A stretch of 64,000 bases of DNA from Schmidtea polychroa (Eukaryota), in the NCBI GenBank assembly GCA_044892525.1, contig CM097885.1:372001-436000 (forward strand), written 5' to 3'. The position numbers and the translations under genes are program-made. The notes below the pieces were generated by a model, which did no database searches, was not told the DNA's origin, and saw nothing but the letters and a program-made list of their open reading frames with translations. Shown one piece after another: positions 1 through 38,888 of this stretch (within the stretch, counting starts at the first letter, position 1; every line of letters begins with the position of its first letter).

Positions 1-3051
<3,051 letters not shown>

Positions 3052-9195: not shown

Positions 9196-9475
9196 ACAAC
9201 AGTTTATACGGTAAAACTGTGGAAAACTTGAAGAAACGTATAAATTTGAGATTATGCAACTAAAGCAAAAGATTGATAACTTATTGTAGTCATCCTATGT
9301 TTCGTCGTAGCATCAAGATTACCGATGATCTCATTGCTGTTATACTCAATAAGGAAATCGTGTGTTTAGATAGACCAATGTATATTGGACAAATCGTACT
9401 TGATTTATCCAAACTTCGCATGTACCAATTTCAATATAAAGAGCTACAGAATTATAGAGAAGAATTCAATTGTCA
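9196..9475 (+). pseudogene. pPolB fragment beginning at motif B
   Basis: NSLYGKTVENLKKR...DRPMYIGQIVLDLSKLRMY, with an internal stop. Confidence 0.85.
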
Positions 9476-9606
9476 AAAAAAAAATTAAATAGAAGTAATT
9501 AAATAAATTTAAAAAAAAATAAATAGAAAAGATTCTATTGACCTATATTTGAGATGGACATTGGGATGACCTTGAAAGTGTCCTGGAGTCCTCACTATAT
9601 ACTACT

Positions 9607-13975: not shown

Positions 13976-16250
13976 CAGGGGTGCCCACTAATTTTTCTAG
14001 GAGTGCTACATTCACATCCAAAATGTGTATGCGATCTACTTTTTTAATACTTACATAATATTTACCTAAAATGCAATAAATTCATCACAATAGAACAAAT
14101 ATATGTCAAAATATGGAAAATTAAACTATGTAACTATTTATTATAAAAAAATATAACTTAGGAAATCAAATTTAATGAAAATTATTGTTATATAGAACTT
14201 TTCGATGTTGATGCTCTACATTGGGTTGAATCCACTAGATTTTTGTAGTTTGGGATATAAGTGCTAAGACAACTTCTTAGGCTGGATTCCAAATGGTCAT
14301 CTGTTAATGTTGCTCGGTACTTTGACTTAATAATTTTCATATGTGAAAATGCAGACTCACATAAATAAGTTGAACCAAAAGATGATACTAAATTTTCGAA
14401 GCATTTTTTCAAGTTTGAATATTTATCCTCTGATAGATATTTCCATACATTTGGTTCGGAAGATCTTGATTTAATGAAGATATCATTTTGAAGTGTGATT
14501 ATTTCCATTTCAAGTATAGGGATATCCATTTTAAACAAAGTTGAAATTGAATCTGCAACAATTTCTGGCTTTATTTTTGGATTAAACGGAAAGGACATAA
14601 ATGCAGCCACAATTTCAAGTTTCTTGAAGTCTTGAAAACGTCTCTCGAGCTCTAAAACCAAAATTTTGATCTGTTCCGCATATCTCGTAATATTAAAGTT
14701 GACATTTTCAGATTCTTTTAATTGTGACAACATATTTGGAAAATAACTTAAATTTTTGTCTTTTATTTTGATAATAAGTAAATGAAGCTTTTGTATAAAT
14801 GCAATGATTGAACTTATCATATCGAATATCAATTTATCCTTACCATGTAAGTCGAGATTTAATTCATTCAGAATTGCAGTAATATCTACTAAAAATGCCA
14901 AATCCAAGAGCCAAACATCATCTTCCAATTGCTTGAACTCATCACCTCTTGCGGCAAGGAACAACTTAATCTCAGAAAGCAAATCTCTAAATCTTTGTAA
15001 GAATTTTCCTCTACTTAGCCACCTTACATCTGAATGCATCAGTAATTCAGCAGGACCTTCGCTATTACTTTCTTCAATTTGTAATTTGAAAAGTCGTCTC
15101 TGAAGACTTCTTGCACGAATCGAGTTAGCAATTTTGAATGTTATTTCCATAATATCTCTCATATTCTGAATTTTAGCACACAAGGTTTGTTGATGAATAA
15201 TACAGTTGTAGGAAAGAAAATCTGGGAATTCACAATCATTCCTACAATATGCTATAAATCCGTTGTGACACCTGTCATAGCTGGTGCGCCATCTGTTGTT
15301 ATTGATACAAGCTTACAAATTTGGAGCTGAATGCTGTTGGCATAAGCTTTAAAATTCTGAAATATATCCTCACCTCGAGTTTTACTTTTGAGTGGTATAA
15401 TTGTTAATAATTCTTCCTTCGTAGAAAAATCTTTAAAGACCATTCGAATAAAAATTATAAGCTGCGAAATATCAGCCGCATCAGTTGATTCGTCTGCTTG
15501 CAATGAAAATGCAGTACAATTTCCTATGTCTAACATTAACTGATATTTTAAATTGGTACTTTTTTCTTGGACTCTCCGTGTAACTGTATTACGGGACAAT
15601 TGCATATCAGTAATAGCAGAAATTATATCTGATTTATTTTTAAAATCACAAAATAATGATTCTGCCGCTTCTAAAAATGCTTCTTTTACAATTACTCCAT
15701 CACTAAAAGATTTCTTATTTTTTGCCAGAATGTAGCTTACTCGGAAAGATGCAGCTGTAGCTGACTTTGATTTGGATGCTAGCTTCGTAAAAAATAACTG
15801 CATGTTTTCAGTTCCATGATTTTAGACTTGCGTAGTTCACTGTCAAGTGGATAATCAACTGCAAAATTCTTATGAATTGTCTTGAAATGCCTTTCCAAAT
15901 TCCCTCTTTTTGGTAATGAAATAGTAGCTTTACAAATTAAGCAACAACATTTACCTTTAATCATTACAAAAAAGTACTCCTTCTCCATTTCTTCGCTATA
16001 ATGATAAGTCTTGGCTTTTCTATTTATCATTTTTTATTTAGCATTTTTTTATTTAGCATTTTTAAACAAAATTAATTTAACAAAAAAGCTTAAGAAAATT
16101 TTTCACTTTGTTACACAAAAATTTAAGTATAAAACAGAAATTTTATATAAAATCTAAATTTATATAAAAAATATTTTTTTTATGAAGATCTACTAAAAAA
16201 TCCTTCGCGGTCTACCGGATAGATCGCGATCGAACTTATGGGCACCCCTG
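13976..16250 (-). mobile_element. hAT DNA transposon, Buster/SPIN/Charlie-like (GTF2IRD2-type transposase), copy 1
   Basis: TIRs CAGGGGTGCCCA...TGGGCACCCCTG with a perfect 8-bp TSD TTATACAT (13968-13975, 16251-16258) having a central TA. Frameshifted transposase 14188-16030 with CLIC..RHFKTIH, DESTD, TDGAPAM, RWLSRG and STYLCESAFS. Confidence 0.96.
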
Positions 16251-19200
16251 TTATACATCGTTTCTAAGTTTTAAATGGAACTTTATTTAATTTACTACTA
16301 TTAAATAAAGGAAACAATTTCCATTACGTTGCTATAAGTAATTTAAATAGGTTACTGAATTGTGGTATCAACACTAGTTGTCCTACACGTATACGTTCAT
16401 TATGGTGCCATCGGTGTTTGAATGGGTTTATGTATAAACAGGCACTGGAAAAACATGAAATATTATGTAAACGTAATCAATTAGGAACAACTCTTTACAC
16501 TTTCCCTCAAAATAAATTATTGCAGTTTACTGACTGGTCGAAAACAGTAACTCCTCCTTTTGTAGTTGATGCCGATTTTGAGGCTATTTTACCTTCTGAT
16601 AATGTTCATTTCCAACGACACATGACAATATCTGCTGGTCTTTTACTTGTAAATAACTTTGACGTATCTAAATCTTATCAACAGTTCATAGGTTTAGATT
16701 GCGTCGAGAGTTTTTTAAGTGCTATAGAGGATATAGCATTAAATAAGGTTCTTCCTTTTTATTATAAAATGGGTAGGAAACCTATGATTAAATTAACGAA
16801 AATTGAACAACGTCAATTTGTTAGTGCATCTGTTTTTTATCTTTGTATGAAATCTATCGTTGATCCTGTTAGAGATCACGATCATTTTACAGGGAAATAC
16901 TTGGGTGCAGCTTGTAGCACATGTAACAAAAATAAGAAAATAAATAAAATTTTGCCTATCGTATTTCACAACTTGAAGGGATACGATATGCATCATATAC
17001 TTAAATACGGATTAAATAAATTTAAAAATTGGACTTTAGGTTGCATCCTAATAACGACTGAAAAATTTATTTCTTTGATTGCGCATTTAGGCAAAAGAAT
17101 TGATTCTTATCAATTCATTGATTCTTATCAATTTGTTAATGATTTTTTAGCTAAAGCAGTCAAAACTTTGAATTCTTAGCCTTTCACTAATTCTGTTTTT
17201 TCTGGCACTATAGTTTCTGAAAAAGGAATCTTCCCTTATAATTTCGCTACATCTTTAGATATTCTCCAAACTACTTATGAATTACCACCAATCTGGGAGG
17301 GTGTTACTGAGCTTTAGTATGAAAAAGCTCAGGAGATTTGGGTAGAAACTATTTGCCTAATTTTATTAGATTATATGATGATCTACTTAAAACTTGATTG
17401 TTTTCTTTTGGCTGATTTCTTTCATCAGTTTCGGTTGAAATCTATTGCTCACAATAGATTGGAACCATTGAATTATTTCGGAATTCCAGGTATGTCTTGG
17501 TCTTCTGCATTAATGTCTTTAAATGAACCAATTGAGCTCATAACTGAAAACGAAATGTTTAGCTTTTATGAGGGTGGAATAAGAGGCGGTATTACTTTTG
17601 TGAATTAGCATTACGTAAAAACCGATGAGAACACCGAGTTAATTTATATAGATATTAATGATCTTTATGGTTGGGCTTTAAGTCAATCATTACCTTGTGG
17701 TGAATTTAGTTGGGTTCTTGATGGATTTGATTTAATAATGGATGAAAGTAGGAATTTAAATCTTGATTCTTTGTCTTATGGATACACTCTTGAAGTTGAT
17801 CTTGTAATTTCTTCTGAGCTAAATGAGAAGTTGGATGATTTCCCTGAAGCTGCTGAAAAATTGGGCATGTAAGATTAAGTGAATTAAATATTGGAGAAAA
17901 TGTTGTAGAAATTGTTGGAGAAAATGTTGGAGAAATTGTTGGAGATGAATTTGATGAAAATGTTGGAGAAGATTTTGGAGAAGATGATATCGACATCGAT
18001 GACGTTATTTTGTCTGATGAGGACTAATTTTATTAAATAAAAGTTTATATATATACATTTGTTATTTTTTTGGTAAATTTTTATGTTTTTTATGTGTCTT
18101 GTTATTGTTTATATGTTTTGTTATGTGTCTAGTTATTTTTATGTGTTTAGTTAATTTTTTATGTGTTGTATAGTATTTGGTTGATATATTATTATTATTA
18201 TTTTTATTATTATTTCATAAACATTTCCATTAAAAGTTACCATTGAAAAATATTTCATTTCAATTGTTAATAAATTTAAAAATCTTACTTTAATTTACTT
18301 ATTTAACTTTAATTTTTTACCATTGATTACTTAATTTTAAAATTTGGACCTTAATTAACTTTAATTTAATTTTTTAGAACCTTAATTTAGTTATTTGTGC
18401 CGATGAGAACACCGAGTTACTTTATTTAGATATTAATAATCTTTATGGTTGGGCTTTAAGTCAATCATTACCTTGTGATGAATTTAGTTGGGTTCTTGAT
18501 GGATTTGATTTAATAATGGATGAATGTAGGAATTTAAATCTTGATTCTTTGTCTTATGGATACACTCTTGAAGTTGATCTTGTAATTCCTTCTGAGCTTC
18601 ATGATAAGTTGGATGATTTCCCTGTAGCAGCTGAAAAAATGAAACCTGCTGGGTCTAAGGTTAAAAAATTATTATTAACTCATCTTCCAAATTCTAATTA
18701 TGTGATTCATTGGAGATTATTAAAATTATATTTGGAACTTGGTGTTAAAGTAACACGTGTAAATAGGGGTGTAAGATTTAAGCAATCTCCAATTTTTAAA
18801 AAATATATAGATACAAATACAGAAATAAGGTCAAAAAGCATAAATAATTTAGATAAAAATTATTATAAATTGTTAAATAACAGTTTATACGGCAAAACAG
18901 TTGAAAATTTAAAGAGAAGAATGAATCTTCGTCTTTGTACAACTGCCGGTAAATAAGTAACATATTCTTCAAAGCCGACTTTTAAAAAACTATTAAAATA
19001 GACGATAATTTAATTGCGGCATTAGTGAATTCAGATTCTATATGTTTAGTTAGACCAAGTTACATTGGTCAATCTGTACTTGATCTATCTAAACTTAGAA
19101 TGTATGAATTACAATATATTATATTGAATATAAGGATCTAGAATCATTTCGCAATGAGTTTAATAATAAAATTAATATCGTTGCAGGTGATACAGATTCT

Positions 19201-20099
19201 TTTTTCCCCGAAGTTAATAACTGTAAACTTGAGGTTCTTTTACCTGCAATGATTCGAGATAATTTATTACATACTTCCAATTACAATAATTGTCATTCCT
19301 TATATAGTAAGAACTTTGATTCAGTCATTGGAAAGTTCAAAGACGAGAATAAAGGTCTTAAATATAAGGAATGGGTTTTTCTTAGACCTAAATGTTATAG
19401 CTTGTTGGGTGATGAGGAAACAAAAAAGGCTAAAGGTGTAACATTGAAAGGTAGTGACATAAAACATCAGTCATACCTGGATTGTTATAACACTAACCAG
19501 ATTTTTTCGGTTCCTCAGACTAAAATAACAAGCAAAAATCATCAAATTTTTACAATTAAAAATACTAAAATAGCACTTACTAACAAAGATGACAAAAGGG
19601 TTTGGGTGGGAAAAAATACTAGTCTTGCATATAGGCATGTAAGATTAAGTGAATGAATTAAATATTAGAGAAAATGTTGGAGAAATTGTTGGAGAAAATG
19701 TTGGAGAAATTGTTGGAGATGAATTTGATGAAAATGTTGGAGAAGATTTTGGAGAAGATGATATCGATATCGATGACGTTATTTTGTCTGATGAGGACTA
19801 ATTTTATTAAATAAAAGTTTATATCTATACATTTGTTATTTCTTTGGTAAACTTTTATGTTTGTTATGTGTCTAGTTAATGTTTATATGTTTTGTTATGT
19901 GTTTAGTTAATTTTTTATGTGTTGTATAGTATTTGGTTGATATATTATTATTATTTTTATTATTATTTCATAAATATTTCCATTAAAAATTACCATTGTA
20001 AAATATTTCATTAAAATTTCTTTTAAAAATAATTCATAAAAAATTATTTCATAAAAATTTTCATTAAAAAATTTCAATTCTCAAACACCTTCTATTATT

Positions 20100-22069: not shown

Positions 22070-23820
22070 CTTCATGATCTGTTAATATGACCTCTTCTAT
22101 AATCATCGGTTTCTGCATCAATTTCTATTTGTTCATTTTCTCCATCGGTTTCTCCATAATTAACCTTATATAAACTTACATGTTCATATGCAAAACTAGT
22201 ATTTTTCCCCACCAAAACCGTTTTATCATCTGCATTTGTAAGAGCTATTTTTTTATTTTTTATTGTATATATTTGATGATTTTTTGATGTTATCTTTAAT
22301 TGTGGTATTGAAAAAATTTGTTTTGTATTGTAAAAATGTAGATATCACTGATGTTTTAAGTCATTACCTTTCAATGTTACTCCTTTTGCTTTTTAATTTC
22401 ATCTTCACCTAACAAACTATAATATTTTGGCATAAGAAAACCACATTCTTTATATTTAAGACCTTTATTCATATCTTTGAATTTTCAAATGACAGAATCA
22501 AGGTTCTTACTGTATAAGGGATGATTTGGGTTATAATTTCAAGTGCCTAGAAGGTTATCCCTAATCATCATACATTATTTAATAGTAAATTGTTCCTATA
22601 TTAATCAAAACTATTCATAAAATTGTTGTTGCTAAATCTTATTCAAATTTTACTTATAGGTTTCCTACCCATTTTTTAATAATAAATGTAAGGTTAAATC
22701 CTCTACAGCACCTAACAGTATTACAAAATTACAAACTAAAATTTAATAAAACTTTTTAATAAATTTAATAAATTAAAACTTTGATTAGCATGCATCCAAT
22801 CAAAATTTAATAAATGAAAGTATTTAATTATCTAAATTTAAAAAATGTCTAATAAAAATAGCACTAATATAAATAGAAAATAGTACATCTGTTATTGGAA
22901 TGACATGTAAACCTCCTGTTCATTACCTTCAATATAATATGTAATATTCGAAATATCCTATTGCTTATTCTTTTAAGGTATTTATTTTTAATTATCTCTA
23001 TTGATTTTTGGTTGGAACAAGTTAATTTAAAAGCCTAATCAAAAGTCTATCAATATTGCAATGTTCAACAATGTCCTTGAATAAATTTACTGTATAAGGA
23101 ATGATTTGGGTCATAATTTGAAGTGTCTAGTAGGTTATCTCTAATCATCACAGGTGAAAGAATATCAAGAGAAAAAATTTTAATTTCCAAGATTAATTGA
23201 TATCAATGTCCCCCAGCAACGATATTAATTATATTACAATATATTTTTGTAACTCTTCATGATGCAGCTGATATATTCTAAGTATCGATAGATCAAGTGC
23301 AGATTGTCCAATGTAACTTGGTCTATTTAAACATATAGAATCAGGATTTAACAATGCTGCTATTAAATTATCATCGATTTTTATTGATTTTTTAAATGTA
23401 GGTTTTGATGTACACGAGACTATAAAACTTCTTCCGCTTAACCTACTTATTTAATTATTTCAGTGATAGTGAAATGAATTTCTGTTATTTTATTAATTAA
23501 CAAGCTACTTCCTTGTGATTTTTTAATACTTGTGATTTATACTTGTTATTTGTGAAATTCTTTTTTAGATTTTTTCATTTTTTCATTTTATTCCCTAATT
23601 TCTTCATCGAAAAATGTATCAGTTAAAGGTTTTGCATTATTATACGTAACCTTATTCGTTAATGATATATTAATTTATCTATTAGTGATTCAGGAAATAT
23701 TATTTCTTTAATATTTAAGTGTTAATACTTAATATTTGGTGGTAACTCTTAAATCACTTAGAACAATTGGTAAATTTTCTCCTATTTGTATATTATTTAA
23801 TAGTAAATTGTTCCTATAAT
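22070..23820 (-). pseudogene. Highly degraded, patchwork pPolB remnants
   Basis: Reverse complement resembles lineage-A 3' end (KAKGVTLKG, DDK.V.VGKNTS), PSYIGQSALDLS and the QIG N-terminal region. Confidence 0.7.
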
Positions 23821-26082: not shown

Positions 26083-26501
26083 TTAAAATAGTTGTGAAAG
26101 TCTAGCAGACATAATTTTTCAAATTGGAGAATACACATCATTATTATCAACTTTATATCCTTGGATTGCAATTGTTATATACCAATTTTCGTTTTCTTTG
26201 AAACCGATTTCATCAAATGAATCATAAAATCTTGCATATCTGTTGTTGAACCAGGCATGTTGATTACAAGATAGATTCGTATTCAACCGTTTGAAAACCT
26301 CATCAATAGATTTAACATCTAACATTGAAAGCGTGCCGGATAAGAATTGAAATTTAGTTGGAATTAGCTTGATCGGTGACACCAATTTTATATTGATTTC
26401 TTCTTTTAAAAATACATTTTATAGTTGTGGAACATTTGAACAGGTTGTACAAGTTCTGGAACAACTTTTGGCTTTTCAGTGCTTGAAATTTTCTTTGTCA
26501 T
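26083..26501 (-). pseudogene. Disrupted ~135-aa gene, possibly an OB-fold ssDNA-binding protein
   Basis: ATG at 26501 with TATAAAAA and CCAAT-box motifs upstream. One frameshift near 26420 and one TGA; the C-terminus is beta-rich (WYITIAIQGYKVD..YSPI*KIMSA). Confidence 0.35.
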
Positions 26502-26780: not shown

Positions 26781-27192
26781 TTATTTTGATACAATCTGAC
26801 TCGAGTGATGATTTCTCAGAGTCTTCACCAAACACCATTCAACATATTGTTGATAACGGAAATTGCAACAGCTACATCCGAAAATGCAAGGAGCCTCTGC
26901 TTTCATTTCTTTCATCCCCCTTCCTATCTTGATATCCAATAGAAAGGTGTTTATTATATCGAATATCCAGATTCGAGTTTGGTTGTATACCAAATCCGGA
27001 ATGATAGATGGATCTCTATCTTGTAGAATTTCATTTAATTCTGGATAATAGAAGCATAATCTTTGCAGGATAATTGATTGATATTCATCTGTAAAAAATA
27101 TATATATATTAATGTAATAATAAAAATTTGAAATTACCATAATTTGCATGCTCTTTCATTGAGGTGATTGCGGAACTTTGTATGTTGTACAT
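26781..27192 (-). CDS. Small Cys-containing protein of unknown function, two exons (27192-27138, 27088-26781)
   Basis: A 49-nt GTAATT..TTTACAG phase-1 intron gives MYNIQSSAITSMKEHANY-D-EYQSIILQRLC...CIFGCSCC. Confidence 0.65.
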
Positions 27193-27313: not shown

Positions 27314-27778
27314 TTAATTAAGTGATAATAAAAAATCTAAAAATTCTTTTCCTTCAATTATTGATTTAATTTCAGATATGATATTATCAACTATACATTT
27401 GTAATCAATATTTTTTATTCCAAGAATTACTATCTTACCGCTAGCGAATATATTTACACACATAGGGTTATATTTTATATATCTCAAAGCTGGAAATAAT
27501 TCTGGTTCGTAAACACATGGTATTAATTTAGCCAAATTATTTAAATTACAAGAAAAACCTATATCGGAAGTTACGGTTACCGATTGTATTTCTAAATCAT
27601 AAACATTATATTCACTAGCTTTGATTATTTCCTTACACCCCATAATTCTACATTTACCAGTTTTGAAATATATTATTGGATATTTATTACTTCTATTGAT
27701 AAGTTGTTGTGGTTTCCCCATTGGAAATACCATTTTTGATACATCAGCTTTTGCCCTGTAATTTATATTTGAAAGCAT
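27314..27778 (-). CDS. TATA-binding protein (TBP)-like protein, 154 aa, intronless
   Basis: Two TBP repeats: LSNINY...IIYFKTGKCRIMGCK and EIQSVTVTSDIGF..NL..L...YEPELFPAL.Y...VNIFASGKIVILG.K. Confidence 0.88.
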   Translation of the reverse strand: MLSNINYRAKADVSKMVFPMGKPQQLINRSNKYPIIYFKTGKCRIMGCKEIIKASEYNVYDLEIQSVTVTSDIGFSCNLNNLAKLIPCVYEPELFPALRYIKYNPMCVNIFASGKIVILGIKNIDYKCIVDNIISEIKSIIEGKEFLDFLLSLN

Positions 27779-27882
27779 TTTAATGAAATAATTATAAAAA
27801 CTCTGTTATATATAGTTATTTTAAAAAGGAGTTCATTTAAATTATCAATATAAACAATAATTATATAGTTTAAATTTAAAAA

Positions 27883-28521
27883 ATGGAATTACGAAATGAT
27901 GCAGTATACCAAATCGTTGGTCCGAGTGGTAGTGGAAAAACATTATTTGTTTGTAAATTACTAAAATCTAATTTGTTCAAAACAAAATTCAACAATATTT
28001 ATTGGCATAGGGGCGCCGATGAAGAACATGGATTGACTCAATCAAGTTTCTGTCAATTGAAAAACATGAAAATAGTAAAGGGTTTTGATAAAAACTGGTC
28101 AAGTCGTTTGAAAAAAGATGATGTCATCATTATCGATGATTTGTATCAAGAAGCCAATAAAGAAAAGGATTTTAATAATTTATTCACAAAAATCAGCAGA
28201 CATGTCGGTGTAACAGTTATTTTCATTACACAAAATCTATTTCATCAAGGTGGTGCACATCGAACACGTAATTTAAATGTACAATATCTAGTTATTTTCA
28301 AGAATCCTAGAGATGCAACTGTCATCGATTTTCTTGGACGACAAGCATACCCTAATAACCGTAATTTTCTTATCAGTGCATTTCAAGATGCTACGAAAAT
28401 ACCTCATGGGTATATATTTCTCGATTTCACACAACAATGTCCTGATGATATACGGGTAAAAACAGATATTTTCAACCCAAAAGGTGCCATGGTTTATAAA
28501 CAAAGTTTAAAACAAATTTGA
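27883..28521 (+). CDS. A32/FtsK-like genome packaging ATPase (Polinton type)
   Basis: Walker A GPSGSGKT, Walker B IIIDD, LFTKISRH..VTVIFITQNLF and FKNPRD; intact 212 aa. Confidence 0.93.
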   Translation: MELRNDAVYQIVGPSGSGKTLFVCKLLKSNLFKTKFNNIYWHRGADEEHGLTQSSFCQLKNMKIVKGFDKNWSSRLKKDDVIIIDDLYQEANKEKDFNNLFTKISRHVGVTVIFITQNLFHQGGAHRTRNLNVQYLVIFKNPRDATVIDFLGRQAYPNNRNFLISAFQDATKIPHGYIFLDFTQQCPDDIRVKTDIFNPKGAMVYKQSLKQI

Positions 28522-28534
28522 AAACATATAAATC

Positions 28535-29029
28535 ATGTTTTCAAAAACAAGGATATCGAGTAAAAAACAACCAAAAGTTCCACCAACAACTAGTTATACT
28601 CCATCTAAAGAACTTATTACAGAAAATTTTCCTGCAATGAATCTCATTTTGAAAAATCCTAAACCTAAACCTAAAAGTAAAACCACTAAGAAAGTAAAAG
28701 TTGTTAAAAATCATCGGAGTTTCCCGTTTTTCAATACATTGTTAAAGGCACCCAGTATGAAAAGAAACAGTATTTTGCAATCTTTTCCAAATTATGTTGT
28801 CGATGATTTACTCGATATTATACTTAAAGTAGTCAAAGGTAAGATTAAAATCAGTAAATCTAAAAAGCAATTATTGAGTAAACATAGGAAACCTTTGCTA
28901 TCATTAGTAAATAATAAAAATCGTCAACAAATGAGAAAAATTATATATAAACAACAAGGGGGATTTATCGGTGCATTGATACCTTTAGCAATATCATTAT
29001 TAGGTGGAATAATAGGAAGTCGATCATAA
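28535..29029 (+). CDS. Basic core/pVII-pX-like virion protein
   Basis: Lys-rich, ending QQGG-FIGALIPLAISLLGGII (protease-site-like GG followed by a hydrophobic helix); lies between the ATPase and integrase. Confidence 0.65.
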   Translation: MFSKTRISSKKQPKVPPTTSYTPSKELITENFPAMNLILKNPKPKPKSKTTKKVKVVKNHRSFPFFNTLLKAPSMKRNSILQSFPNYVVDDLLDIILKVVKGKIKISKSKKQLLSKHRKPLLSLVNNKNRQQMRKIIYKQQGGFIGALIPLAISLLGGIIGSRS

Positions 29030-29090
29030 ACAATGGGTGCTAATCCTTCATTACCAGACATTAAATTTAATTTTAAATCTTCTTGTTGTA

Positions 29091-29630
<540 letters not shown>

Positions 29631-29929
29631 TTGAAAAATATTATTAATTCTACATAAAGACTACCTATGCCTGAAGCATGCACAGTGCAAGTTAACAAAG
29701 GCATGACTAACAAAGGCAGTCACATGTAATTTCTGAGTGATTTACATTACATGCATGCATGCGTGTGATTGGTTGAGAGATGAAAATTTCAAGTTACTAT
29801 GCGTATGTGTCTAATTCTGATTGGCTGGGACATGAAATTTTTCATTCTCTTTATAAACATTGACAAATCTAAAATTTGTCACAATTATTTTAAAATTTTA
29901 AAAATCTATTAATAATAATATTTAACAAC

Positions 29930-31104: not shown

Positions 31105-32502
31105 TCAACAATAATAATAATAATAATATCACCAACAATAATACTAACAGCACCAATAATAATAATAATGATATAAACGAAATAAATAATCTAAAAGATC
31201 AAGTAAATAAATTAAATGAACAAATAAATAATCTAATTAATATGAATAAAAGAAAAAATAATGAAAAAATAAATTCAATACCAAGTAAAAAATCTAAAGT
31301 TATTGATGTAATCACAATAAGTGATGATGATGAAATAATCAACATAAGTGATGAGGAAATTGATAATAATAATAATAATAATAGTAGTAGTAGTAATATT
31401 TATTATAATAATCGTATTAATAATACTAATCAAATAGGTTATGGTGTCGTAGATGTCACCAGTGATTTAAATAATAATCATATTATATTAAAAATGGACG
31501 TTTCGTCTTTAGATTTAAAAACGGTCTCTGTACCAGAAATTTTAATAAATAAATTAAATTTATATGTAAATAAATTAAAATCATGTAAAATTCAATTTTG
31601 TCTAAAGGTGGAATTTATAAAAGATGATGAGTTACAATCTTTTGTAATCTCGAATTCCGCCCGAGTTTGGAGCGATACATTCATTGACGAAAGTATTGCT
31701 CGTTTAAATGAAAAAATAATTAAAATTAATGAGAAAGGTAGTAATTGGACTATCAATAAAATAGAATACATAAGCTTTGTTCTTACTAAATTTGCTGAAA
31801 TAAGTCGATTAAGTGGTAGAAGTTTTATTGAAACCCCAAAATCTTTAAGAAACTTAAGCTGTCTCATTAATGTAGTTAATAATGACCACTTCTGCTTTTT
31901 GTATAGTTTCTTGTCAATTATTAAATATGACTGTATAAATAGGCAATATAGAAATCGCCCTAATTCCTACAATCTTTCTGAAATTAAATTTGATCCTAAT
32001 GATATGCCGATGAAACTATCAAATATAAGTAAATTTGAACAACAAAATCCGGGTTATAGTATTAATGTTCTTACTTATAACGAAAAGGCTTTGATTGACA
32101 TTTCCGATGAAGATGCAGTTATGAAACATCCATTTATTGATATAATATATAGGAGTAAGATAGTAGGAGCCATACCTATCAATTTATTATTAATCGAAAA
32201 GAATGATAATTATCATTATCTTGGAATCACAGACCTAAATAGATTTCTTAATTGTAGGAATAGTTCAATCACTCCTGTTAGGATTTGTAGTCAGTGGTGC
32301 CCTAGATGTTTAAACGGTTTTAGGAATGATGACACTTTTAATAGACATAAGGGTCTTTGCGATAAAAATCAGCTTGGTACTACCTTGTACACATTGCCTA
32401 AAAATAAATATTTAGAATTTACTGATTGGAGTAAAACAGTTACTCCTCCCTTTGTTATTTACGCCGACTTTGAGGCTATCTTACCTAAAGACACTCGCTA
32501 CT
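29930..32502 (+). pseudogene. pPolB lineage C, 5' half (spliced leader, poly-Asn, terminal-protein-like region, up to exo I)
   Basis: Predicted exons 29930-29987, 30035-30091, 30138-30197 and 30751 onward. Uninterrupted frame with INVVNNDHFCF, HYLGI, CPRCL..F....HKGLC and YADFEA. Confidence 0.9.
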
Positions 32503-33495
32503 TTGAATCCAATGATGGATTGGTTGTTGAATCCCAGGTCGGATTGCCTTTTGTTGAATCCAATGATGGATTGGTTGTTGAATCCAATGATGGATTATTC
32601 ACTTCCTTTGATTCTTGGGATGGATTAAATATAATTCAAATAGGTGGAAATGTATCGACAATACAAAGAGATTTTAGAGGTACCCATCAAATATTAACTT
32701 TAAATACTAGCGACTTAAATATAAAAGAAATAATATTTCCTGAACAACTAATAATAAAATTACGAGATATTATTAACGAATTAGGATCCGTCAAAATTCA
32801 ATTCGGAATAACAATCGAATTTGAAAAAGACGGGTAAATAAAGGTTAATAATATCTCCAATTACGCAAAACCTTTAACTGCATCATTTTTTGATCAAGTC
32901 ATTAAGGAACTAAATGAGAAAATAACTAATATTACAAAATTAGGAAGCAATTGGATTATAAAAAATATAACAGAAATCCACTTCACTATAACAAAAATAA
33001 GTAGGTTAAGTAGATTAAGTGGTAGGAGTTACATTGAAACACCTACTTATCTAAAAAATAAATATTGTTTAATTAATATAAAAAACACTGATGATTCATG
33101 TTTTTTATATAGCATTTTAGCTATTTTAAAATATGATGAAGTTAGTAGTTATGCTAGAAATAGGACATTGAGTTATAATTTATCCGACTTAGTACATAAC
33201 CCGTTAGAATTACCTATGAAATTAAAAGACATTAGGAAATTTGAATCTAAAAATTCGGGTTTAATAATTAATGTTTTTTCATATGATAATAGCAAACAAT
33301 TAACTGATAATTATGTATTAAAACATCCACATTTAGATATTATAAATCAGGGGTGCCCACTAATTTTTCTAGGAGTGCTACATTCACATCCAAAATGTGT
33401 ATGCGATCTACTTTTTTAATACTTACATAATATTTACCTACAATGCAATAAATTCATCACAATAGAACAAATATATGTCAAAATATGGAAAATTA
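32503..33495 (+). pseudogene. Lineage-A pPolB N-terminal piece plus one end of the hAT element (33348-~33495)
   Basis: Near-identical to ~13160-14120, including the same hAT junction. Confidence 0.92.
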
Positions 33496-35319
33496 GTTAA
33501 TGTTTTCACTAACAACAATATATATTTACAGAGGCCTCCCACTAGTTGGATTACAACCGCCCATCACGACGATCAGCTTCTAAATATATATTAATTAAGG
33601 GATAAAGAGCACCCACCCAACGCTATTATATTTAATTTACAAAGGGTTTCTCGCTCTTCTGCTGGTAATCTATCTCAAAATTATTATCTCCATCGGGGCA
33701 TTTGATATTGATTTCATGGAATACATCTTGCAAATTGGACGTATTTCATAGTTTCTGATGCTGCGTCAACTTTCATTGCTAACATTTGTATTGCTTTAAA
33801 AGCAATTAATTTACATTATCTAACATTTTATCGTCACAGGCTTGATAAATTAGGCAACTGTTATTTGTGGTATACTTTATCAATATAATTTCTTATCAAT
33901 TCCCACCATAAAACACAGATACCTAAATATAATATATATATTTATGAATTAATTCATGTCTTACATTAATAATAATATTCTTCAGGAATGACGAGTACTT
34001 TACTTAATTGCTAAAACGTCGATTTTTCCCATTTTTCTTGACATTTGTTGAAAGAAAGTTTACATAATTTAAGTCTGATAAGTAAACATTCATGTTGGAG
34101 GACACCCACAATCAGCTAATTTATTTAAAAAATCCAGAACATAACTCCTTTAGTGTTTCACTATTTTTTCTGGTTCATCTTCTTCATAATCATATAAATC
34201 ATTTTCTTCATTACTAAGTAAAATAATTAAAATATTGTAGTAAATTCTTTATTTACTTACTTTATGGATACTAAAACGAAAGAAATAAAGTTATATCAAA
34301 AGTATATTTAAATAATTTAAATTTAAATAATTTAAATTTAGTTATTTAAATATATTTAAACAATTTAGTTATTTAGGCATATTTAAACATTAATATTATT
34401 ATATAGTATAATTTTATATAATTTTATATAATATTATAATTTTATATATTCTAAATTTAATAAATAAAATTAATTAATTATAATTAATTAATAATTTAAT
34501 AATAAAAAATTTATAATGAAGATTCTTTGAATTAAAAAATATTCTGTTAGTATTTCCAGGCAGAAAAAAACGAATTCAATAATTAAAATCTTAATTTTCA
34601 AGTTATATATTTAGGGTTGTGGCCAGAAGTTAATCGCCATCTAATCATTTGTTTTCAATTTCGCTTATTTTTGTTCAAAACATTCAGGTGAGTTGTTATC
34701 TGAAAAGTTTCTTTGAGCTCAGTTTTGTTAAAACACTCACGGTATTTTTGAGGGACGTGACACTGGAAATAAAATAACAATGAGTGGTCATCCATACATG
34801 TTGTTGGTCTGAGCTATCGATTTATTTTAGAAATAGGTATATTAAAAACATTTAAGGTATCATTCAGTAAAATAATATAGTATTTTTTAGTTAATTTATA
34901 AATAACAGTATTTTGATATATTAATAAAGACCATATACTCCGAGTTTATCCGACAAAATATTCTGTCCCCCTATGGGTATTGCTAGCAAGGGTACTGGTC
35001 ACATTCAACATGTCGCAAGAGTATATTAATCAGTTAGAAATTCTTAGGTAATTTAGTGAGATGATCACAAATTCGTGAATATTTTAAATGTAACTTTACA
35101 CTTATGTCAAGCGACTATTTTATTGGTTAACTTTGTAGTCATTTAAAGCAAAACTTAATTTATTCATCTAATGTTCGTTACAATAGTTAATAATATGAAA
35201 AAAATAAGGTCATTATTCATTGATAATTTTAAATTCTTTATCATTTGGAGTAAATTTGTTTGAGGCAAAATTAATTAAAGGAGTCATAATAGAAATATGG
35301 TTAGAAATAGAAATAATTT

Positions 35320-36331
35320 TAGACCTTAATTTACTTAATTGAAATTTTAGACCTTAATTTACTTAAGTTTAAAAATATATACCATAATTTACTGTAATTG
35401 AAAAATTTGGACCATAATTTACTGTAATTTAATTTTTTAGAACCATAATTTACTGTAATTGAAAAATTCGAGCGACTAATTTATTGGTTAACTTTGCAGT
35501 CATTTAAAGCAAAACTTAATTTATTCATCTAATGTTCGTTACAATAGTTAATAATATGAGAAAAATATGGTCATTATTCATTGATAATTTTAAATTCTTT
35601 ATCATTTGGAGTAAATTTGTTTGAGGCAAAAATAATTAAAGGAGTCATAATAGAAATATGGTTATCATTTAACCAATTAAGGGGCTTATTAGTTAGAAAT
35701 ATATATATTATAAAGTAACAATTATTTTCTAATTTAATTAGATGATCATTAGACGTAATATATCTTTGCGAGAAATTTAAAATGTTTGAGTAACCAAAAC
35801 ATGGATATTTTGTGCGATAAATTTATGAATATTGGTTAATTTTGTTATTTTTAGTCATTTAAAATAATATTTAGCAAAGGTAATTTAGCAAAATATCGTT
35901 GTAAGATTTATCCACCCGATAACAATATTCCTTCAATAGATTAACTGATATTCAACCTATTTAATTTCTGGAAATATAATTAAAATCATAAATTTCCTTC
36001 AATAAAGTTAAATCAAAAACGCAAGAGACGCTCAAGCAAATCAAGAATTAAAAAATAAACACATTGCAGAAACAGAATTTATATAAAGTCAAACCCTGAC
36101 TCCTACAACAGGTTCAAGTCTAAATAAAATTCAATAAAAAGCAATAACACTAGTAAGTAGGACTCCAACCCACTTTCAAGGTCATGAAATATGTCCCGAT
36201 CAAATATAGGTCAATTGAATCATTTATTTTTAAATTAACATTTTATTTATTTACTTCTTTTTAATTTTTTCTTTTGATTTATATTAATTATTTATTTTAT
36301 TTTGTTTTATTTTAATTACTTACGCTATTTA

Positions 36332-36384
<53 letters not shown>

Positions 36385-36990
36385 CTATTTTATTTATTTC
36401 TTTATTTTTTCTTAAATTTTACATTTACATTATATTCTAACAAGAGAGTTAATTATAACAATAATATTTCAATTTGTATAAAATTTTAATTAGTAATTAT
36501 TCAATTTGAATAAAATATTTATTAGAAATTATTTAATTTATTATAAAATAAAACGCTGTATTAATTTTAAATAAACTGGATATTAATTTTTTGGAAAAAA
36601 TAAATAAATAAAATAGTCTAAAAGGTTAAATTATGGTCTAAAATTGAAAATTTAAAAATTGAAAATTGAAAATTAAAAACTAAACTAATCAAACTAAATC
36701 AAACGCTATAACCTTAATTCAAGAATTCACTAAAGTAGATCAGAAGATATTAATTATCAAAATGTAACAAAGACTCTGAAATTCATCAATTTCATCTAAT
36801 GACCTGGTGATATTCAATACCATTCTCAAGAATGCTAAAGTCGGGAATTCTTTGAATTTAACAATTTCATCTAACTATCCGGCGATATTCGATCCGATTC
36901 TATAAAGTATTTATCTTTGTAGTTGAATAAAAGTTTATTGTTGATTATAGTTTATCATTAATTATTTTTTTGTTAGGGGTGTTAAAGAAA
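35320..36990. repeat. Non-coding block duplicated at ~47160-48830
   Basis: Long near-identical stretches, e.g. cgagcgactaa...gcaagagacgctcaagc...gacctggtgatattc. Confidence 0.85.
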
Positions 36991-36996
36991 ATACTT

Positions 36997-38888
36997 GACT
37001 GATTCATTTTTCTCAGATAAAATTTGTTCTGTAATCGGGAAATTCAAGGATGAGAATAAAGGAAATCAATATAAAGAATGGGTGTTTCTTCGACCCAAGT
37101 GCTACTCACTCCAAGGCGATAAAAACACTCTAAAAGCCAAAGGAATAAGACTTACATACTCTAATCTTACACATGAAGCCTATAAAAAAGTGTATACTGA
37201 TGGTGGAACAGTGAGCATCCCACAAAAAAGAATAGGAAGTGTCAATCATCAGTTGTATACTTTCATGACAGAAAAACGAGCTCTCCAATGTTTGGACGAT
37301 AAAAGGTATTGGTACAATTGTAATGAAAGCTATGCCTACGGTCACTATAAGATTCGTCAAATGCATATTGCAACTGCTATGTCTAGAAATGAATGCAAAT
37401 CGAAACAAGGACTTTAACAATTAAATTTATGTGAATAATAAAATATATATTGTGAATTATTTGACTTCGTTAATTAAAATATGTTTTATCATTTAATAAT
37501 TCATTTGTCCAATTAATTTAGATAATTAGTTTTAAGTAAGAATTATTATTTATCATGAAAAACTTTGCTTTGTTTTGAAAAATTAATGCCCATTTTATTT
37601 TAAATTAACACAGCTTTATTTTATGATAATTACTAATTAAAATTTTATTCAAATTGAAATATTATTGTTACAATTTACACTCTTGTTAGAATATATTAAA
37701 TGTAAATGTAAAATAATAACAATAAAAAAAAATAATAATAATAAATAAAAAATTAAATAAAAAAATTAAAATTAAAAAAAATAATAATAATTAGTTAAAT
37801 AATTAATTAAAAATTAATTAAAAATTAAATAAAAAAAATCATTTAAATAACGTAAGTAATTAAAATAAAATATTAATAATTAATTAATTAATTAAATGTA
37901 ATAAATTGAAAATTTACTAAAGTAATTAATTAAAACAAAAAACATAATAAAATAATTACTTAATAAATTTAAAAAAAAAATTAAATAAAATGATTCGATT
38001 GACCTATATTTGATCTGGACATTGGGATGACTTGAAAGTGTCCTGGAGTCCTCATTATATACTACAACAGTTTATACGGTAAAACTGTGGAAAACTTGAA
38101 GAAACGTATAAATTTGAGATTATGCAACAAAAGCAAAAGATTGATAACTTATTGTAGTCATCCTATGTTTCGTCGTAGCATCAAGATTGGGGATGATCTC
38201 ATTGCTGTTATACTCAATAATGAAATTGTGTGTTTAGATAGACCAATGTATATTGGACAAATCGTACTTGATTTATCCAAACTTCGCATGTACCAATTTC
38301 AATATAAAGAGCTACTGAGTTATAGAGAAGAATTCAATTGTCAAATTAATATCGTAGCCGGTGACACAGATTCCTTCTTTTTAGAGTGTAAAAATGTTGA
38401 TTTACGCTTACAACTGTATCCAAAAACGATTGAAGATGGGCTCTTAGATACTTCAAATTATCCAGTGACCGATCCGTTGTTCTCTGATGAAATTTGTTCT
38501 GTAATCGGGAAAGGTAAGGATGAGAATAAAGGAAATCAATATAAAGAATGGGTGTTTCTTCGACCCAAGTGCTACTCACTCCAAGGCGATAAAAACACTC
38601 TAAAAGCCAAAGGAAAAAAGACTTACAAACTCTAATCTTACACATGAAGCCTATAAAAAAGTGTATACTGATGGTGGAACAGTGAGTATCCCACAAAAAA
38701 GAATAGGAAGTGTCAATCATCAGTTGTATACTTTCATGACAGAAAAACGAGCTCTCCAATGTTTGGACGATAAAAGGTATTGGTACATTTGTAATGAAAG
38801 CTATGCCTACGGTCACTATAAGATTCGTCAAATGCATATTGCAACTGCTATGTCTAGAAATGAATGCAAATCGAAACAAGGACTTTAA
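36997..38888 (+). pseudogene. Two tandem lineage-B pPolB C-terminal fragments (36997-37417; 38064-38888)
   Basis: NSLYGKTVEN, GDTDS, KAKG and DDKR motifs; duplicates the 8140-9475 arrangement. Confidence 0.9.

Follow-up and report, generated by a model that had tools for sequence, protein, structure and literature searches.

A short TBP homologue in a Polinton clade of Schmidtea polychroa and a strand-specific YATAAAC box upstream of element genes

The window, i.e., the whole stretch of 64,000 nucleotides of S. polychroa DNA that was analysed (contig CM097885.1, positions 372,001 to 436,000), contains a Polinton copy in which a short TBP homologue and a packaging ATPase are encoded head-to-head. 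The features of this copy, with the basis of each assignment in parentheses, are the following.

26104..26415, minus strand: o189 homologue (tblastn, 28% identity, E 1.9e-6), whose product may bind ssDNA through an OB fold
26781..27149, minus strand: orf122, directly downstream of TBP on the same strand (ORF, kept in own-genome copies)
27314..27778, minus strand: short TBP homologue, 154 aa plus stop (ATG-start ORF, Pfam TBP, AF2 model)
27779..27882, no strand: divergent spacer of 104 bp between the TBP and ATPase start codons, with both putative core promoters inside (sequence)
27779-27786, minus strand: TCATTAAA, Inr-like word, its A at -6 of the TBP ATG (sequence)
27806..27814, minus strand: TATATATAA box, its 5' T at -36 of the TBP ATG (sequence)
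27849..27855, plus strand: TATAAAC box at -34 of the ATPase ATG, putative late promoter box (sequence)
27883..28521, plus strand: A32/IVa2-like packaging ATPase, 212 aa (Pfam Pox_A32, E 2e-7)
28495..28501, plus strand: TATAAAC box at -40 of the orf164 ATG, within the 3' coding end of the ATPase gene (sequence)
28535..29029, plus strand: orf164, basic and conserved protein whose C-terminus is hydrophobic (ORF; homologues between ATPase and integrase in relatives)
29025..29031, plus strand: CATAAAC box at -66 of the integrase ATG (sequence)
29091..29657, plus strand: rve integrase, cut short, 188 aa (Pfam rve, 31.8 bits, slightly below the cut-off of 32.6; E 1.8e-7)
31191..32621, plus strand: protein-primed PolB, N-terminal fragment (91% identical to the L113 copy)

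An intact ORF of 154 aa, 104 bp head-to-head from the ATPase, had been given in a preliminary description made from the sequence alone, and both the ORF (27314..27778, minus strand) and the spacer (27779-27882) were borne out.

The short TBP gene is embedded among genes for protein-primed PolB (pPolB), rve integrase, A32-like ATPase and putative capsid proteins. The ATPase of the window is of the FtsK/A32 type, with a Pox_A32 score of 31.2 bits (cut-off 22.8); the Adeno_IVa2 match in the ATPase of the relative L056 was weak. The integrase ORF of the window runs into an (ATT)n tract and is 188 aa long, where another own-genome copy has 301 aa and the relatives have 347-348 aa; within the family, rve was matched with 48.3 bits (L007), 54.5 bits (L056) and 33.3 bits (L113). 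A chromodomain is also matched by the integrases of L007 and L056 (above the Pfam cut-off in L056 only), and both of these relatives combine pPolB and an A32/IVa2-like ATPase with integrases of the rve plus chromo type. Protein-primed PolB was recognized by DNA_pol_B_2 with E-values of 1.9e-21 (L056) and 2.3e-16 (own-genome copy L112). In the fuller own-genome copy L113, putative capsid genes lie between integrase and PolB; a tblastn search of the window with c355, c120 and c407 yielded no match. The copy in the window is thus defective, its integrase being cut short and the putative capsid genes missing. For the putative capsid proteins c407, c355 and c352, neither Pfam nor PHROGs returned a match; the Atlas clusters that come nearest to c407 (score 0.98) carry PF21738 DJR-like_dom in 24% and 65% of their members, which is a lead only. 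No Pfam family match to an adenain-like protease was found in the ORFs scanned of L007, L056 and L113, and neither orf122 (best Atlas score 0.78) nor orf164 matched a Pfam or PHROGs family.

The ORF encodes a true TBP-fold homologue. Pfam TBP (PF00352) was matched by the window protein with 55.6 bits (cut-off 22.9, E 4.9e-15) in a single stretch, residues 62-125, repeat 1 being missed; the relative L007 yielded 65.2 bits in two stretches. In a sequence search of the PDB, TBPs made up 35 of the 38 matches listed; among these the highest-ranking was from M. jannaschii (5.3e-17) and human TBP was among the weakest TBP matches. The resemblance of the protein to the animal TBPs of the PDB, all of them human, does not exceed that to archaeal ones. 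A profile search yielded 61 cluster representatives at E<=1e-30, and 88 of 114 candidates were assigned to the short-TBP family at E<=1e-3, all with PF00352 and mostly 144-170 aa long. Identity across the family is 31-58%, and 19 columns are invariant in an alignment of 33 sequences, including F38, E91, P92, E93, F95 and F111. The motifs YEPELFP and IFASGK, which the preliminary description had noted in repeat 2, are present in the window protein; the first comprises the C-terminal stirrup residues through which TBP contacts TFIIB. Of these, E91, P92, E93 and F95 do not vary among the 33 sequences, and conservation is at least 90% at L94 and P96. The motif F..GK...G.K noted for repeat 1 was also found, with the spacing to be corrected: the stretch reads F38-K-T-G-K-C-R-I-M-G-C-K, with four residues rather than three from GK to G.

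The AF2 model of the short TBP (pLDDT 95.7) yielded 44 Foldseek matches at E<=0.001, with TBP entries in every row listed to rank 44. VIA-align superimposed residues 1-142 of the model on whole TBP cores (142 of 154 residues aligned with human and yeast TBP, Z 12.4, rmsd 2.4 A), the top non-TBP row having a Z of 6.4; the structural comparison with TBP that had been proposed as a check therefore returned the TBP fold. Repeat 1 (approximately residues 1-58) is modelled as four strands with no helix, i.e., without helices H1 and H2 and without the stirrup / S2 region, and repeat 2 (approximately residues 59-154) as complete, with the long C-terminal helix at its end. The earlier statement that both repeats are present holds only by structure, where the model aligns over both halves of TBP cores, and not by Pfam, which detects the repeat 2 stretch only; hhalign of repeat 1 against repeat 2 yielded an E-value of 3.2e-5. 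In yeast TBP the DNA-inserting Phe pairs are F99/F116 and F190/F207. The short TBP keeps three of these four positions (F38, F95 and F111, all invariant in the family) and therefore lacks one of two full pairs. The first intercalating Phe had been described as absent, and two alignments agree on this: the position falls on the variable Q24 in MAFFT alignment with canonical TBPs and on G21 in hhalign of repeat 1 against repeat 2. Since F18 lies near the missing position and is mostly conserved in the family, out of register, the register of repeat 1 relative to canonical TBP may be off by a few residues.

Cellular TBPs (eukaryotic TBP/TRF and archaeal TBP) share with the short TBP the saddle fold (Z of about 12 over 142 residues), the repeat 2 YEPELFP stirrup and the F.SGK strand. 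They differ from it in having a core of about 180 aa, as opposed to 154 aa, and a repeat 1 with H1, the S2/stirrup region and H2, all of which are missing from the short TBP, where the first Phe position is non-aromatic. The short TBP gene, unlike that of cellular TBP, is intronless, borne by a mobile element and multi-copy. The giant-virus-like TBPs P0200 and P0228 have two full repeats, which also sets them apart from the short TBP.

A first look at the 781-Mb genome of S. polychroa yielded 4136 candidates for the short TBP and 4004 for orf164. All of the 150 short-TBP copies that were scored are 97-100% identical, and 149 are free of stops. The order orf122-TBP|ATPase-orf164-integrase was found in 30 of 30 loci picked by TBP (one of them the window) and in 29 of 29 picked by orf164, orf122 being kept in 29 of the 30 TBP-picked loci; the spacer 27779..27882 was matched over its full length at 92-100% identity in all 29 orf164-picked copies. 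The host TBP is a separate, intron-bearing gene that shares 59% identity with a eukaryotic TBP across its two repeats, whereas the element copies match the same eukaryotic TBP over repeat 2 only, at about 44%. The many near-identical copies, the kept synteny and the distinct host TBP dispose of a one-off retrocopy of the host gene, which the preliminary description had named as an alternative. Several TFIIB and Brf paralogues are also encoded in the genome; a complex prediction for the short TBP and the core of an intronless TFIIB paralogue (L153 ORF, residues 95-301) scored 0.00, which is neither for nor against binding. Contigs from sequencing runs (X1, X2, X3 and X5, whose RNA status is a guess) cover the TBP ORF and cannot show transcription; one X1 contig bridges the TBP-ATPase spacer, strand and transcript ends not being readable from such contigs, and a loose end in X3 resembles a small-RNA adapter.

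Relatives were found at 81 loci (80 metagenome contigs and one viral contig), all picked for having TBP; a search of viral_contigs with the TBP profile yielded one distant locus only (L001, 32% identity), and a search of the same set with the ATPase profile (A3) for TBP-less relatives yielded 216 pattern hits and no confirmed relative. Another Polinton gene is present in 60 of the 81 loci, in three gene orders. ATPase homologues, 36-75% identical, adjoin TBP in 29 of the 81, where TBP lies upstream on the same strand in 25 and head-to-head in two. The TBP-ATPase-integrase synteny that had been put forward as a check is kept at all loci examined in the own genome, whereas the head-to-head layout recurs in only 2 of 29 relatives and is peculiar to the sublineage of the window. 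The commonest gene adjoining TBP in the relatives is o189, which possibly encodes an OB-fold ssDNA-binding protein: the AF2 model of the L013 member (pLDDT 91.9) had T7 gp2.5, Enc34 SSB and ASFV CP312R as its best Foldseek rows, with E-values of only 0.08-0.3.

Regarding selection, for which dN/dS among copies had been suggested as a check, constraint is clear between lineages and weak within the genome. The median between-lineage dN/dS of the short TBP is 0.28 (90 pairs, dS 0.05-1.5), with 0.05-0.45 in pairs with dS up to 1.0. Among orf164-picked copies within the genome it is 0.41, as opposed to 0.05-0.07 for the ATPase, so that the short TBP is weakly constrained there, much less so than the ATPase; the TBP of the window differs from other copies by about six nonsynonymous and two synonymous changes (pN/pS 0.69). 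(A dN/dS of 0.17 obtained from 30 copies was dropped in favour of the orf164-picked set because those copies had been picked by TBP similarity, which introduces a bias.) Taken over the family, these observations support the short TBP as a stable, selected component of a Polinton clade.

TATA-like motifs had been noted in the spacer and are present there. On the TBP side, TATATATAA and TCATTAAA form a putative host-type promoter of the TBP gene; both are kept in 53 of 56 own-genome copies, and before the TBP genes of relatives TATAWAWR (19/56 against 35/239 other regions) and Inr-like words (23/56 against 23/239) are enriched. On the ATPase side, YATAAAC stands at -34..-47 in 56 of 56 own-genome copies. 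Over the whole window YATAAAC shows no excess (40 matches against 44.5 expected), so that the significance of the spacer motifs comes from the family-wide analysis only.

In that analysis, which covered 295 non-redundant upstream regions from TBP-bearing loci, a strand-specific box, YATAAAC(A/G), was found 35-55 nt upstream of start codons. Among sense-strand 6-mers at -80..-11, ATAAAC ranked first, being present in 115 of the 295 regions as compared with 8 on the antisense strand and 7 in coding controls, its positions peaking at -55..-35. Position 7 of the box is C in 93 regions, as opposed to A in 18, T in 28 and G in 7. The box occurs in 89 of the 295 regions, i.e., in only about a third of them, whereas 200 dinucleotide shuffles gave 4.5 such regions on average and never more than 10; the strand count is 84 sense to 3 antisense, and the elements bearing it span 28-44% GC, presumably reflecting different hosts. 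At -70..-25 of the ATPase genes of relatives it was found in 15 of 23 cases; it also precedes c154 (7/10), MCP-like c403/407 (6/8), c352/355 (3/6) and integrase genes (5/14), and is rare before PolB (1/7) and o189 (2/17). It was found before none of 56 TBP genes (Fisher, TBP against all others, p 2e-10), nor before the putative virion genes c387 (0/3) and c338 (0/2). A reading of the box as a poly(A) signal was rejected because of its placement relative to upstream ORFs: among 92 boxes in relatives, 31 fall inside the preceding ORF, and for 41 the 300 nt upstream contain no ORF on the same strand.

The reading preferred here, which we judge equally likely to be right or wrong, is that the element encodes a minimal TBP of its Polinton clade that is transcribed early by the host and directs Pol II/TFIIB to the late promoters of the element. 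Host Pol II would first transcribe the TBP gene from a promoter consisting of TATAWAWR, an Inr-like TCAYWWT before the ATG and sometimes CCAAT; PolB and the SSB-like gene, where the element-specific box is rare, would be part of this early stage. The short TBP would then bind YATAAAC(A/G) 35-55 nt before the start codons of the ATPase, MCP-like, c154, c352 and often integrase genes, the YATA half possibly being read by the canonical repeat 2 and the AAC half by the remodelled repeat 1, and would recruit TFIIB and Pol II via the C-terminal stirrup E91-P92-E93-L94-F95-P96. In cellular TBP, TFIIA, NC2, Mot1 and TAF1 are contacted through surfaces of repeat 1, namely H1, H2 and the N-terminal stirrup; since the short TBP lacks these parts, it would work outside TFIID and escape those regulators. 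To our knowledge, Polintons encode no RNA polymerase, and the short TBP must therefore work with host polymerases. The remodelled repeat 1 and the non-canonical box would fit an altered DNA specificity. The reading in its full form, a two-stage programme on host Pol II in which a host-type promoter yields a one-and-a-half-repeat TBP that would act on a private YATAAAC box with TFIIB and without TFIID, TFIIA, NC2 or Mot1 to express packaging and capsid genes, is somewhat less probable, falling a little below even chances. The preliminary description had proposed an own basal transcription factor or a TBP mimic; what stands is the true homologue and its place as a selected Polinton component.

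Two other readings are each considered improbable, and to the same degree. The short TBP could be a competitor or decoy that occupies host TATA boxes or titrates TFIIB but does not carry pre-initiation complex assembly to completion, dampening transcription of the host, of rival elements or of its own element; the reader of YATAAAC would then be a host factor. In favour of this, the protein conserves the stirrup for TFIIB together with three of the four Phe and has lost the TFIIA/TFIID surfaces, a TBP unable to enter TFIID could be dominant negative, and the relaxed constraint on TBP in the own genome would suit such a role; however, a decoy leaves unexplained the absence of the box at TBP genes (0/56 compared with 15/23 for ATPase and 6/8 for MCP-like genes) and why only the repeat that would face the non-canonical half of the box is remodelled. 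Alternatively, host TBP/TFIID or a forkhead protein could read YATAAAC, and the short TBP could bend DNA in replication or packaging, or act with Pol III/Brf-type factors. YATAAACA, like ATAAACA, also fits the forkhead core RYAAAYA, host TBP might read YATAAACA, the usual neighbours of TBP are the SSB-like gene and the packaging ATPase, and TFIIB and Brf paralogues are several in the genome. Set against a host reader are the strict strand specificity (84 to 3) and the fixed position 35-55 nt before start codons at 28-44% GC, through which the box behaves as a core-promoter element rather than an enhancer site, and the invariant TBP residues, which include those aligning with DNA-inserting Phe and the TFIIB stirrup and thus suit promoter work. 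It is highly improbable that the ORF is carried along neutrally, as the decaying remains of a host TBP retrocopy from a single capture: the within-genome dN/dS of 0.41-0.69 with few substitutions would allow it, but not a family at 31-58% identity with 19 invariant positions, a between-lineage median of 0.28, Polinton linkage in 60 of 81 loci, a best PDB match that is archaeal with human TBP among the weakest TBP matches listed, and a distinct, intron-bearing host TBP.

A late-gene switch as proposed in the preferred reading would resemble the system of the beta- and gamma-herpesviruses, whose TBP-like proteins (HCMV UL87, EBV BcRF1 and KSHV ORF24) read a TATT late box. The logic shared, by analogy, is that of a viral TBP-like protein made earlier which brings host Pol II to late promoters with a non-canonical TATA. 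The herpesvirus proteins are large, TBP-like in predicted fold only, part of a six-protein complex and in direct contact with Pol II, whereas the Polinton protein is plainly homologous to TBP in sequence and has the TFIIB stirrup; no homology is claimed. Giant viruses (Nucleocytoviricota), which mostly use their own RNA polymerase, and mirusviruses are likewise DNA viruses that have captured TBP genes; mirusvirus-like elements with TBP genes are mentioned in PMC10675990.

The preliminary description knew of no account of a Polinton TBP. This has to be qualified by Starrett et al. 2021 (PMC8502044), where the legend of Fig. 5 has the label 'TBP' in MELD viruses with adintovirus-like PolB, i.e., a TBP-like gene in a mid-size PolB/integrase virus-like genome as here. 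In section 3.4 and the legend, the label is a legend abbreviation only, concerns non-animal datasets and may or may not refer to the short family; both contain no TBP family analysis, structure, synteny or promoter motif, and no fuller description was found. A prior TBP label was found only in this adintovirus paper and its preprint (figures and subscription-only papers lay outside the search), and no paper was found that combines TATAAAC with Polinton, Maverick or adintovirus (subscription-only papers again outside the search).

New here is the strand-specific YATAAAC(A/G) box upstream of element genes. A shared TATAAAC box before most packaging and putative capsid genes and never before TBP points to a built-in early-to-late switch. 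Polintons are seen as the stock from which many eukaryotic dsDNA viruses arose; a TBP of the element together with a positioned, private box provides a testable model of how host Pol II is taken over and early and late genes are ordered. As a natural experiment in TBP minimisation it indicates which parts of the saddle are removable, and it may reveal what determines specificity towards the 3' half of the box. For annotation, the box is a possible simple marker of genes and strands in this Polinton clade. With at least 150 near-identical copies and about 4,000 candidates in the genome of S. polychroa, the promoters and the TBP could matter for host gene regulation and genome defence. Should the full reading hold, the short TBP would rank as the smallest natural TBP whose box specificity has changed, and the YATAAAC box as the first Polinton promoter code to be described.

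ORF calls in the window bore out the earlier claim of an intact TATA-binding protein (TBP) homologue, here called the short TBP, whose start codon lies head-to-head with that of an A32-like ATPase at a distance of 104 bp:

27314..27778, minus strand: short TBP ORF, 154 aa, ATG start, intact
starts 27883, plus strand: A32-like ATPase ORF, 212 aa; Pox_A32 E 2e-7, above the cut-off
29091..29657, plus strand: rve integrase ORF, 31.8 bits (just below the cut-off of 32.6); runs into an (ATT)n tract

The 154-aa protein was matched by Pfam TBP (PF00352) with 55.6 bits (cut-off 22.9, E 4.9e-15) over one stretch only, residues 62-125. When all PDB chain sequences were searched, TATA-binding proteins made up 35 of the 38 listed, the best match being M. 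jannaschii TBP (5.3e-17), with human TBP core entries at about 8e-9. A fold was built with AF2 from a 33-member family alignment (mean pLDDT 95.7). Compared with the PDB using Foldseek, the model yielded 44 matches at E≤0.001, and the entries listed to rank 44 were all TBPs; VIA-align placed model residues 1-142 on human TBP 163-337 (Z 12.4, rmsd 2.4 Å, 142 residues aligned), the top non-TBP chain reaching Z 6.4. Repeat 2 is full in the model (strand 60-72, helix 79-85, four strands, long helix 127-153), and repeat 1 is represented by strands 2-10, 25-28, 35-38 and 42-48. From these strands and the whole-core alignment, both halves of the saddle are predicted to be present, the N-terminal one reduced, without either helix and without the S2/stirrup region. 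The preliminary description had listed both repeats; the second stands in full, and the first is modelled as a saddle half that lacks helices and a Pfam match. Repeat 1 nevertheless appears recognizable as a TBP repeat, as hhalign of family residues 1-58 against 59-154 gave a local match (E 3.2e-5) with F38 paired with F111. All sequence motifs cited earlier were found in the window protein, and the absence of the first DNA-inserting Phe was borne out by two alignments: the canonical residue falls on variable position 24 (MAFFT with archaeal and eukaryotic TBPs) or on G21 (repeat-on-repeat hhalign), with the register of repeat 1 uncertain by a few residues because the mostly conserved F18 sits nearby. 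The remaining three Phe positions (F38, F95 and F111) are invariant in the family.

A word-indexed search of 5.8 billion proteins confirmed 88 of 114 candidates at E≤1e-3, all with PF00352, most of them 144-170 aa long and all from metagenome or assembly sources; their identity to the window protein was 32-96% (most 35-58%), mostly over about 90% of the length. Searched with a profile, 1.84 billion cluster representatives yielded 3647 matches at E≤1e-3; of these, 856 reached E≤1e-10 and 61 reached E≤1e-30, and ordinary two-repeat TBPs were found in the weaker part of the list. The 19 invariant columns in the 33-sequence alignment include the N-terminal I-N-Y and the F..GKCR.MG strand of repeat 1, as well as E91, P92, E93 and F95 of the C-terminal stirrup, which we take, from TBP-TFIIB structures and mutants, to be the TFIIB contact.

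Scanning metagenomes gave 134 confirmed relatives; 80 of them were retained as loci, and one locus was added from viral contigs; neighboring genes were sought by tblastn with the window genes and those of the longest loci. At least one other element gene adjoined TBP in 60 of the 81 loci, and 17 of the other 21 were contigs of about 2 kb or shorter. Pfam scans of two loci support a Polinton identity: L056 encodes a 1405-aa protein-primed PolB (DNA_pol_B_2, 1.9e-21), an A32/IVa2-like ATPase and an integrase with rve and chromo domains, and L007 carries the same ATPase and integrase (chromo match under the Pfam cut-off) and a long minus-strand ORF sharing an Endonuclease_7-like motif with the PolB N-terminus. 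Three gene orders were seen (o189 is an SSB-like gene; dn97, orf164 and names in c are element ORF families):

Order 1: o189 - TBP - (dn97) - ATPase - orf164 - integrase - c352 - c99/120 - c403/407 - c154 - PolB (minus)
Order 2: as order 1, with TBP placed after c154
Order 3: PolB - ... - TBP - ATPase - integrase - c514 - c387 - c424

Among the 29 loci holding both genes, TBP lies upstream of the ATPase on the same strand in 25, head-to-head as in the window in two (L016, L068), far downstream in one (L038) and convergent in one (L074).

The gene most often beside TBP is o189 (L013:1788-2135, plus; L007:1256-1822, minus; 17 other loci; window 26104-26415, minus). Its product folds as a barrel (pLDDT 91.9) with phage T7 gp2.5, Enc34 SSB and ASFV CP312R as best PDB matches (E 0.08-0.3, TM up to 0.65), and may bind single-stranded DNA as part of the replication module. 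Accessory genes recognized by Pfam in relatives (L056:7052-7909, 8996-9394, 11439-11849; L007:225-719, minus) encode a KilA-N domain protein, a phospholipase A2-like domain and a ubiquitin-conjugating-enzyme homologue, and a C2H2 zinc-finger protein lies between ATPase and integrase. On the 44.7-kb IMG/VR contig L001, a distant TBP-like stretch (10001-10270, 32% identity to residues 41-124) had no Polinton gene beside it by tblastn.

The assembly containing the window (781 Mb, four very large contigs; C1-C3 below are contigs of this assembly) gave 4136 first-look candidates in a six-frame TBP search. Each of the 150 copies scored had 97-100% identity; the match spanned residues 1-154, or 1-153 in two of them, and the frame was free of stops in 149. 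The linkage of TBP, ATPase and integrase proposed earlier held in other copies: the order orf122 <- TBP / ATPase -> orf164 -> integrase was found in 30 of 30 TBP-picked loci, window included (the orf122 match missing in one), and in all 29 additional loci that had been chosen through orf164. The host TBP is a separate gene with introns that shares 59% identity with a eukaryotic TBP across both repeats; the element copies align with this eukaryotic protein in repeat 2 only, at about 44%. A one-off retrocopy of host TBP was ruled out by the copy number, the kept synteny and this distinct intron-bearing gene. In a fuller copy (L112-L114), the order goes on with a 301-aa integrase, c355, c120, c407 and an approximately 4-kb PolB, each on the ATPase strand. 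The 407-aa ORF had no match in Pfam or PHROGs; its nearest Atlas clusters carry a DJR-like domain (score 0.98), which points to a possible major capsid protein. The element copy in the window is defective. It has an integrase ORF of 188 aa, lacks c355, c120 and c407, and retains a 1.4-kb fragment of PolB, after which come pieces of another Polinton family that is more distant. Just past PolB in the fuller copy, a 106-aa ORF (L112:7861-8178, plus) has a weak Bcl-2 match (E 8.5e-4, 20.3 bits, below the cut-off of 31.4).

The window holds only one TBP copy. Fragments of the second Polinton family (7867-9476, 13322-19644, 22180-23423 minus, 32628-38822, 42518-46968, 49471-50666 minus), duplicated within the window, have a PolB 37-77% identical to that of the TBP-bearing family and are interrupted by hAT-like transposase ORFs at 14188-15803 and 43444-45233. 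Long ORFs at 1-3063 and 54480-62599, labelled by eye as like non-LTR retrotransposon reverse transcriptases, flank this Polinton-rich stretch, and one continues into a very long tract of (ATT)n type, translated as poly-Ile.

Elsewhere in the genome, further open frames match eukaryotic TBP at 29-50%, three over both repeats without stops (C2:182637078-182637623, minus; C2:132285308-132285766, plus; C1:195751353-195751880, minus; C1:41962680-41963024, plus). None of them is the host TBP (C1:244962234) or one of the short element TBPs; they may represent TBP-related factors or belong to other elements. A TFIIB paralogue is present as at least 13 intronless ORFs of 301-310 aa (Zn_Ribbon_TF 1.5e-10, TFIIB repeat 4.9e-9) at C1:23.85-24.19 Mb, C3:38.2-39.1 Mb and L153:4181-5086 (minus), some arrayed at a spacing of about 7.9 kb; the canonical, intron-containing TFIIB and a Brf1-like gene are located elsewhere. 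An amplified general transcription factor in a genome with abundant TBP-bearing elements is striking, any link between the two being conjectural.

Neutral evolution, raised earlier as the contrary outcome, is not what the lineages show: between metagenome lineages the median TBP dN/dS was 0.28 (90 of 1953 pairs, dS 0.05-1.5). In closer pairs (dS up to 1.0), values were 0.05-0.45 for TBP, compared with 0.00-0.08 for the ATPase of those pairs. A within-genome TBP estimate of 0.17 was discarded as biased because its copies were selected for similarity to TBP. Among own-genome copies chosen through orf164, dN/dS was 0.41 for TBP and 0.05-0.07 for the ATPase, the data from this young burst being thin; relative to the others, the window TBP carries about 6 nonsynonymous and 2 synonymous changes (pN/pS 0.69), and one of 28 ungapped TBP copies had an internal stop. 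Together, the between-lineage and within-genome values argue for long-term purifying selection on TBP, yet with less constraint than on the ATPase.

Promoter words were sought in the 100 nt upstream of all non-overlapping ORFs no shorter than 90 aa, taken from L002-L081 and the own-genome L113 (311 regions, 295 once near-duplicates were removed), every locus having been chosen for its TBP; GC of the elements was 28 to 44%. The commonest sense-strand 6-mer at -80..-11 was ATAAAC (115 regions versus 8 antisense and 7 coding controls), peaking at -55..-35 from the ATG, preceded by T (58%) or C (27%) and followed by A (73%) or G (19%). Position 7 of the resulting box, YATAAAC(A/G), was C in 93 regions (A 18, T 28, G 7). 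[TC]ATAAAC[AG] occurred in 84 regions sense, 3 antisense and 2 coding controls, and [TC]ATAAAC at -70..-25 in 89 of 295 regions, versus a mean of 4.5 and a maximum of 10 in 200 dinucleotide shuffles. The box was rejected as a poly(A) signal of the upstream gene because 31 of 92 boxes lie inside upstream coding sequence and for 41 the preceding 300 nt hold no same-strand ORF; the remaining 20 follow a stop codon.

Regions with a box at -70..-25, by gene (c403/407 is MCP-like)
ATPase: 15/23
c154: 7/10
c403/407: 6/8
c514: 2/3
c352/355: 3/6
integrase: 5/14
PolB: 1/7
o189: 2/17
TBP: 0/56

The difference between TBP and all other genes was significant (Fisher's exact test, p 2e-10). TBP genes were instead enriched in TATAWAWR (19/56 vs 35/239, p 0.002) and in an Inr-like TCAYWWT within 25 nt of the ATG (23/56 vs 23/239, p 1e-7), spaced by 31-32 nt in 6 of 11 TBP regions with both; CCAAT words were not enriched before TBP genes (13/56 vs 39/239). 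The window carries the following words:

TATAAAC, plus strand: 34 nt before the ATPase ATG
TATAAAC, plus strand: 40 nt before orf164
CATAAAC, plus strand: 66 nt before integrase
TATATATAA, minus strand: at -36 from the TBP ATG, host-type word
TCATTAAA, minus strand: immediately 5' of the TBP ATG, Inr-like word

The ATPase start word was found in 56 of 58 further own-genome copies, with the box at -34..-47 in all 56 and both TBP-side words kept in 53. Over the whole window the box is not in excess (40 vs 44.5 expected); the signal appears to be one of position and strand, visible across the family. Contigs of runs X1 and X2 match the window from 27881 on and differ upstream, where they still have ATAAACA about 30 nt before the junction; they are probably a sister subfamily with diverged spacer and conserved box.

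Virus-encoded TBP homologues as such are already known, and TBP genes are mentioned for mirusvirus-like elements in PMC10675990. The preliminary description knew of no account of the present gene; the sole prior mention found in a full-text literature search was the label "TBP" in the Fig. 5 legend of Starrett et al. (PMC8502044), whose section 3.4 does not discuss it, and no fuller account was found. Among the papers listed, none links TATAAAC to Polintons, Mavericks or adintoviruses, and those on promoter motifs and Polintons concern virophages and giant-virus promoters. New are the conserved one-and-a-half-repeat architecture, the fixed place of the short TBP within a Polinton clade, and a private box missing from the TBP gene itself.

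The earlier proposal that the element carries its own transcription factor is supported as to gene identity and element membership; its mechanism is plausible and unproven. In cellular TBP-DNA complexes, the C-terminal repeat lies on the 5' half of the TATA box and the N-terminal repeat on the 3' half. The YATAAAC box has a canonical 5' half and a non-canonical 3' half (AAC), and the repeat that is rebuilt and short of one Phe is the N-terminal one. That host factors read the box, the short TBP having other DNA work, is improbable, and we likewise doubt that the short TBP is a decoy or repressor. The simplest account, a plausible one, couples short TBP and box: the TBP gene would be read early by the host machinery, PolB and the SSB-like gene probably being early genes too, and the short TBP would then recognize the box ahead of packaging and virion genes and recruit TFIIB and Pol II there. 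The surfaces missing from the short TBP are presumably those used by TFIIA, NC2, Mot1 and TAF1, for which reason it would act outside TFIID.
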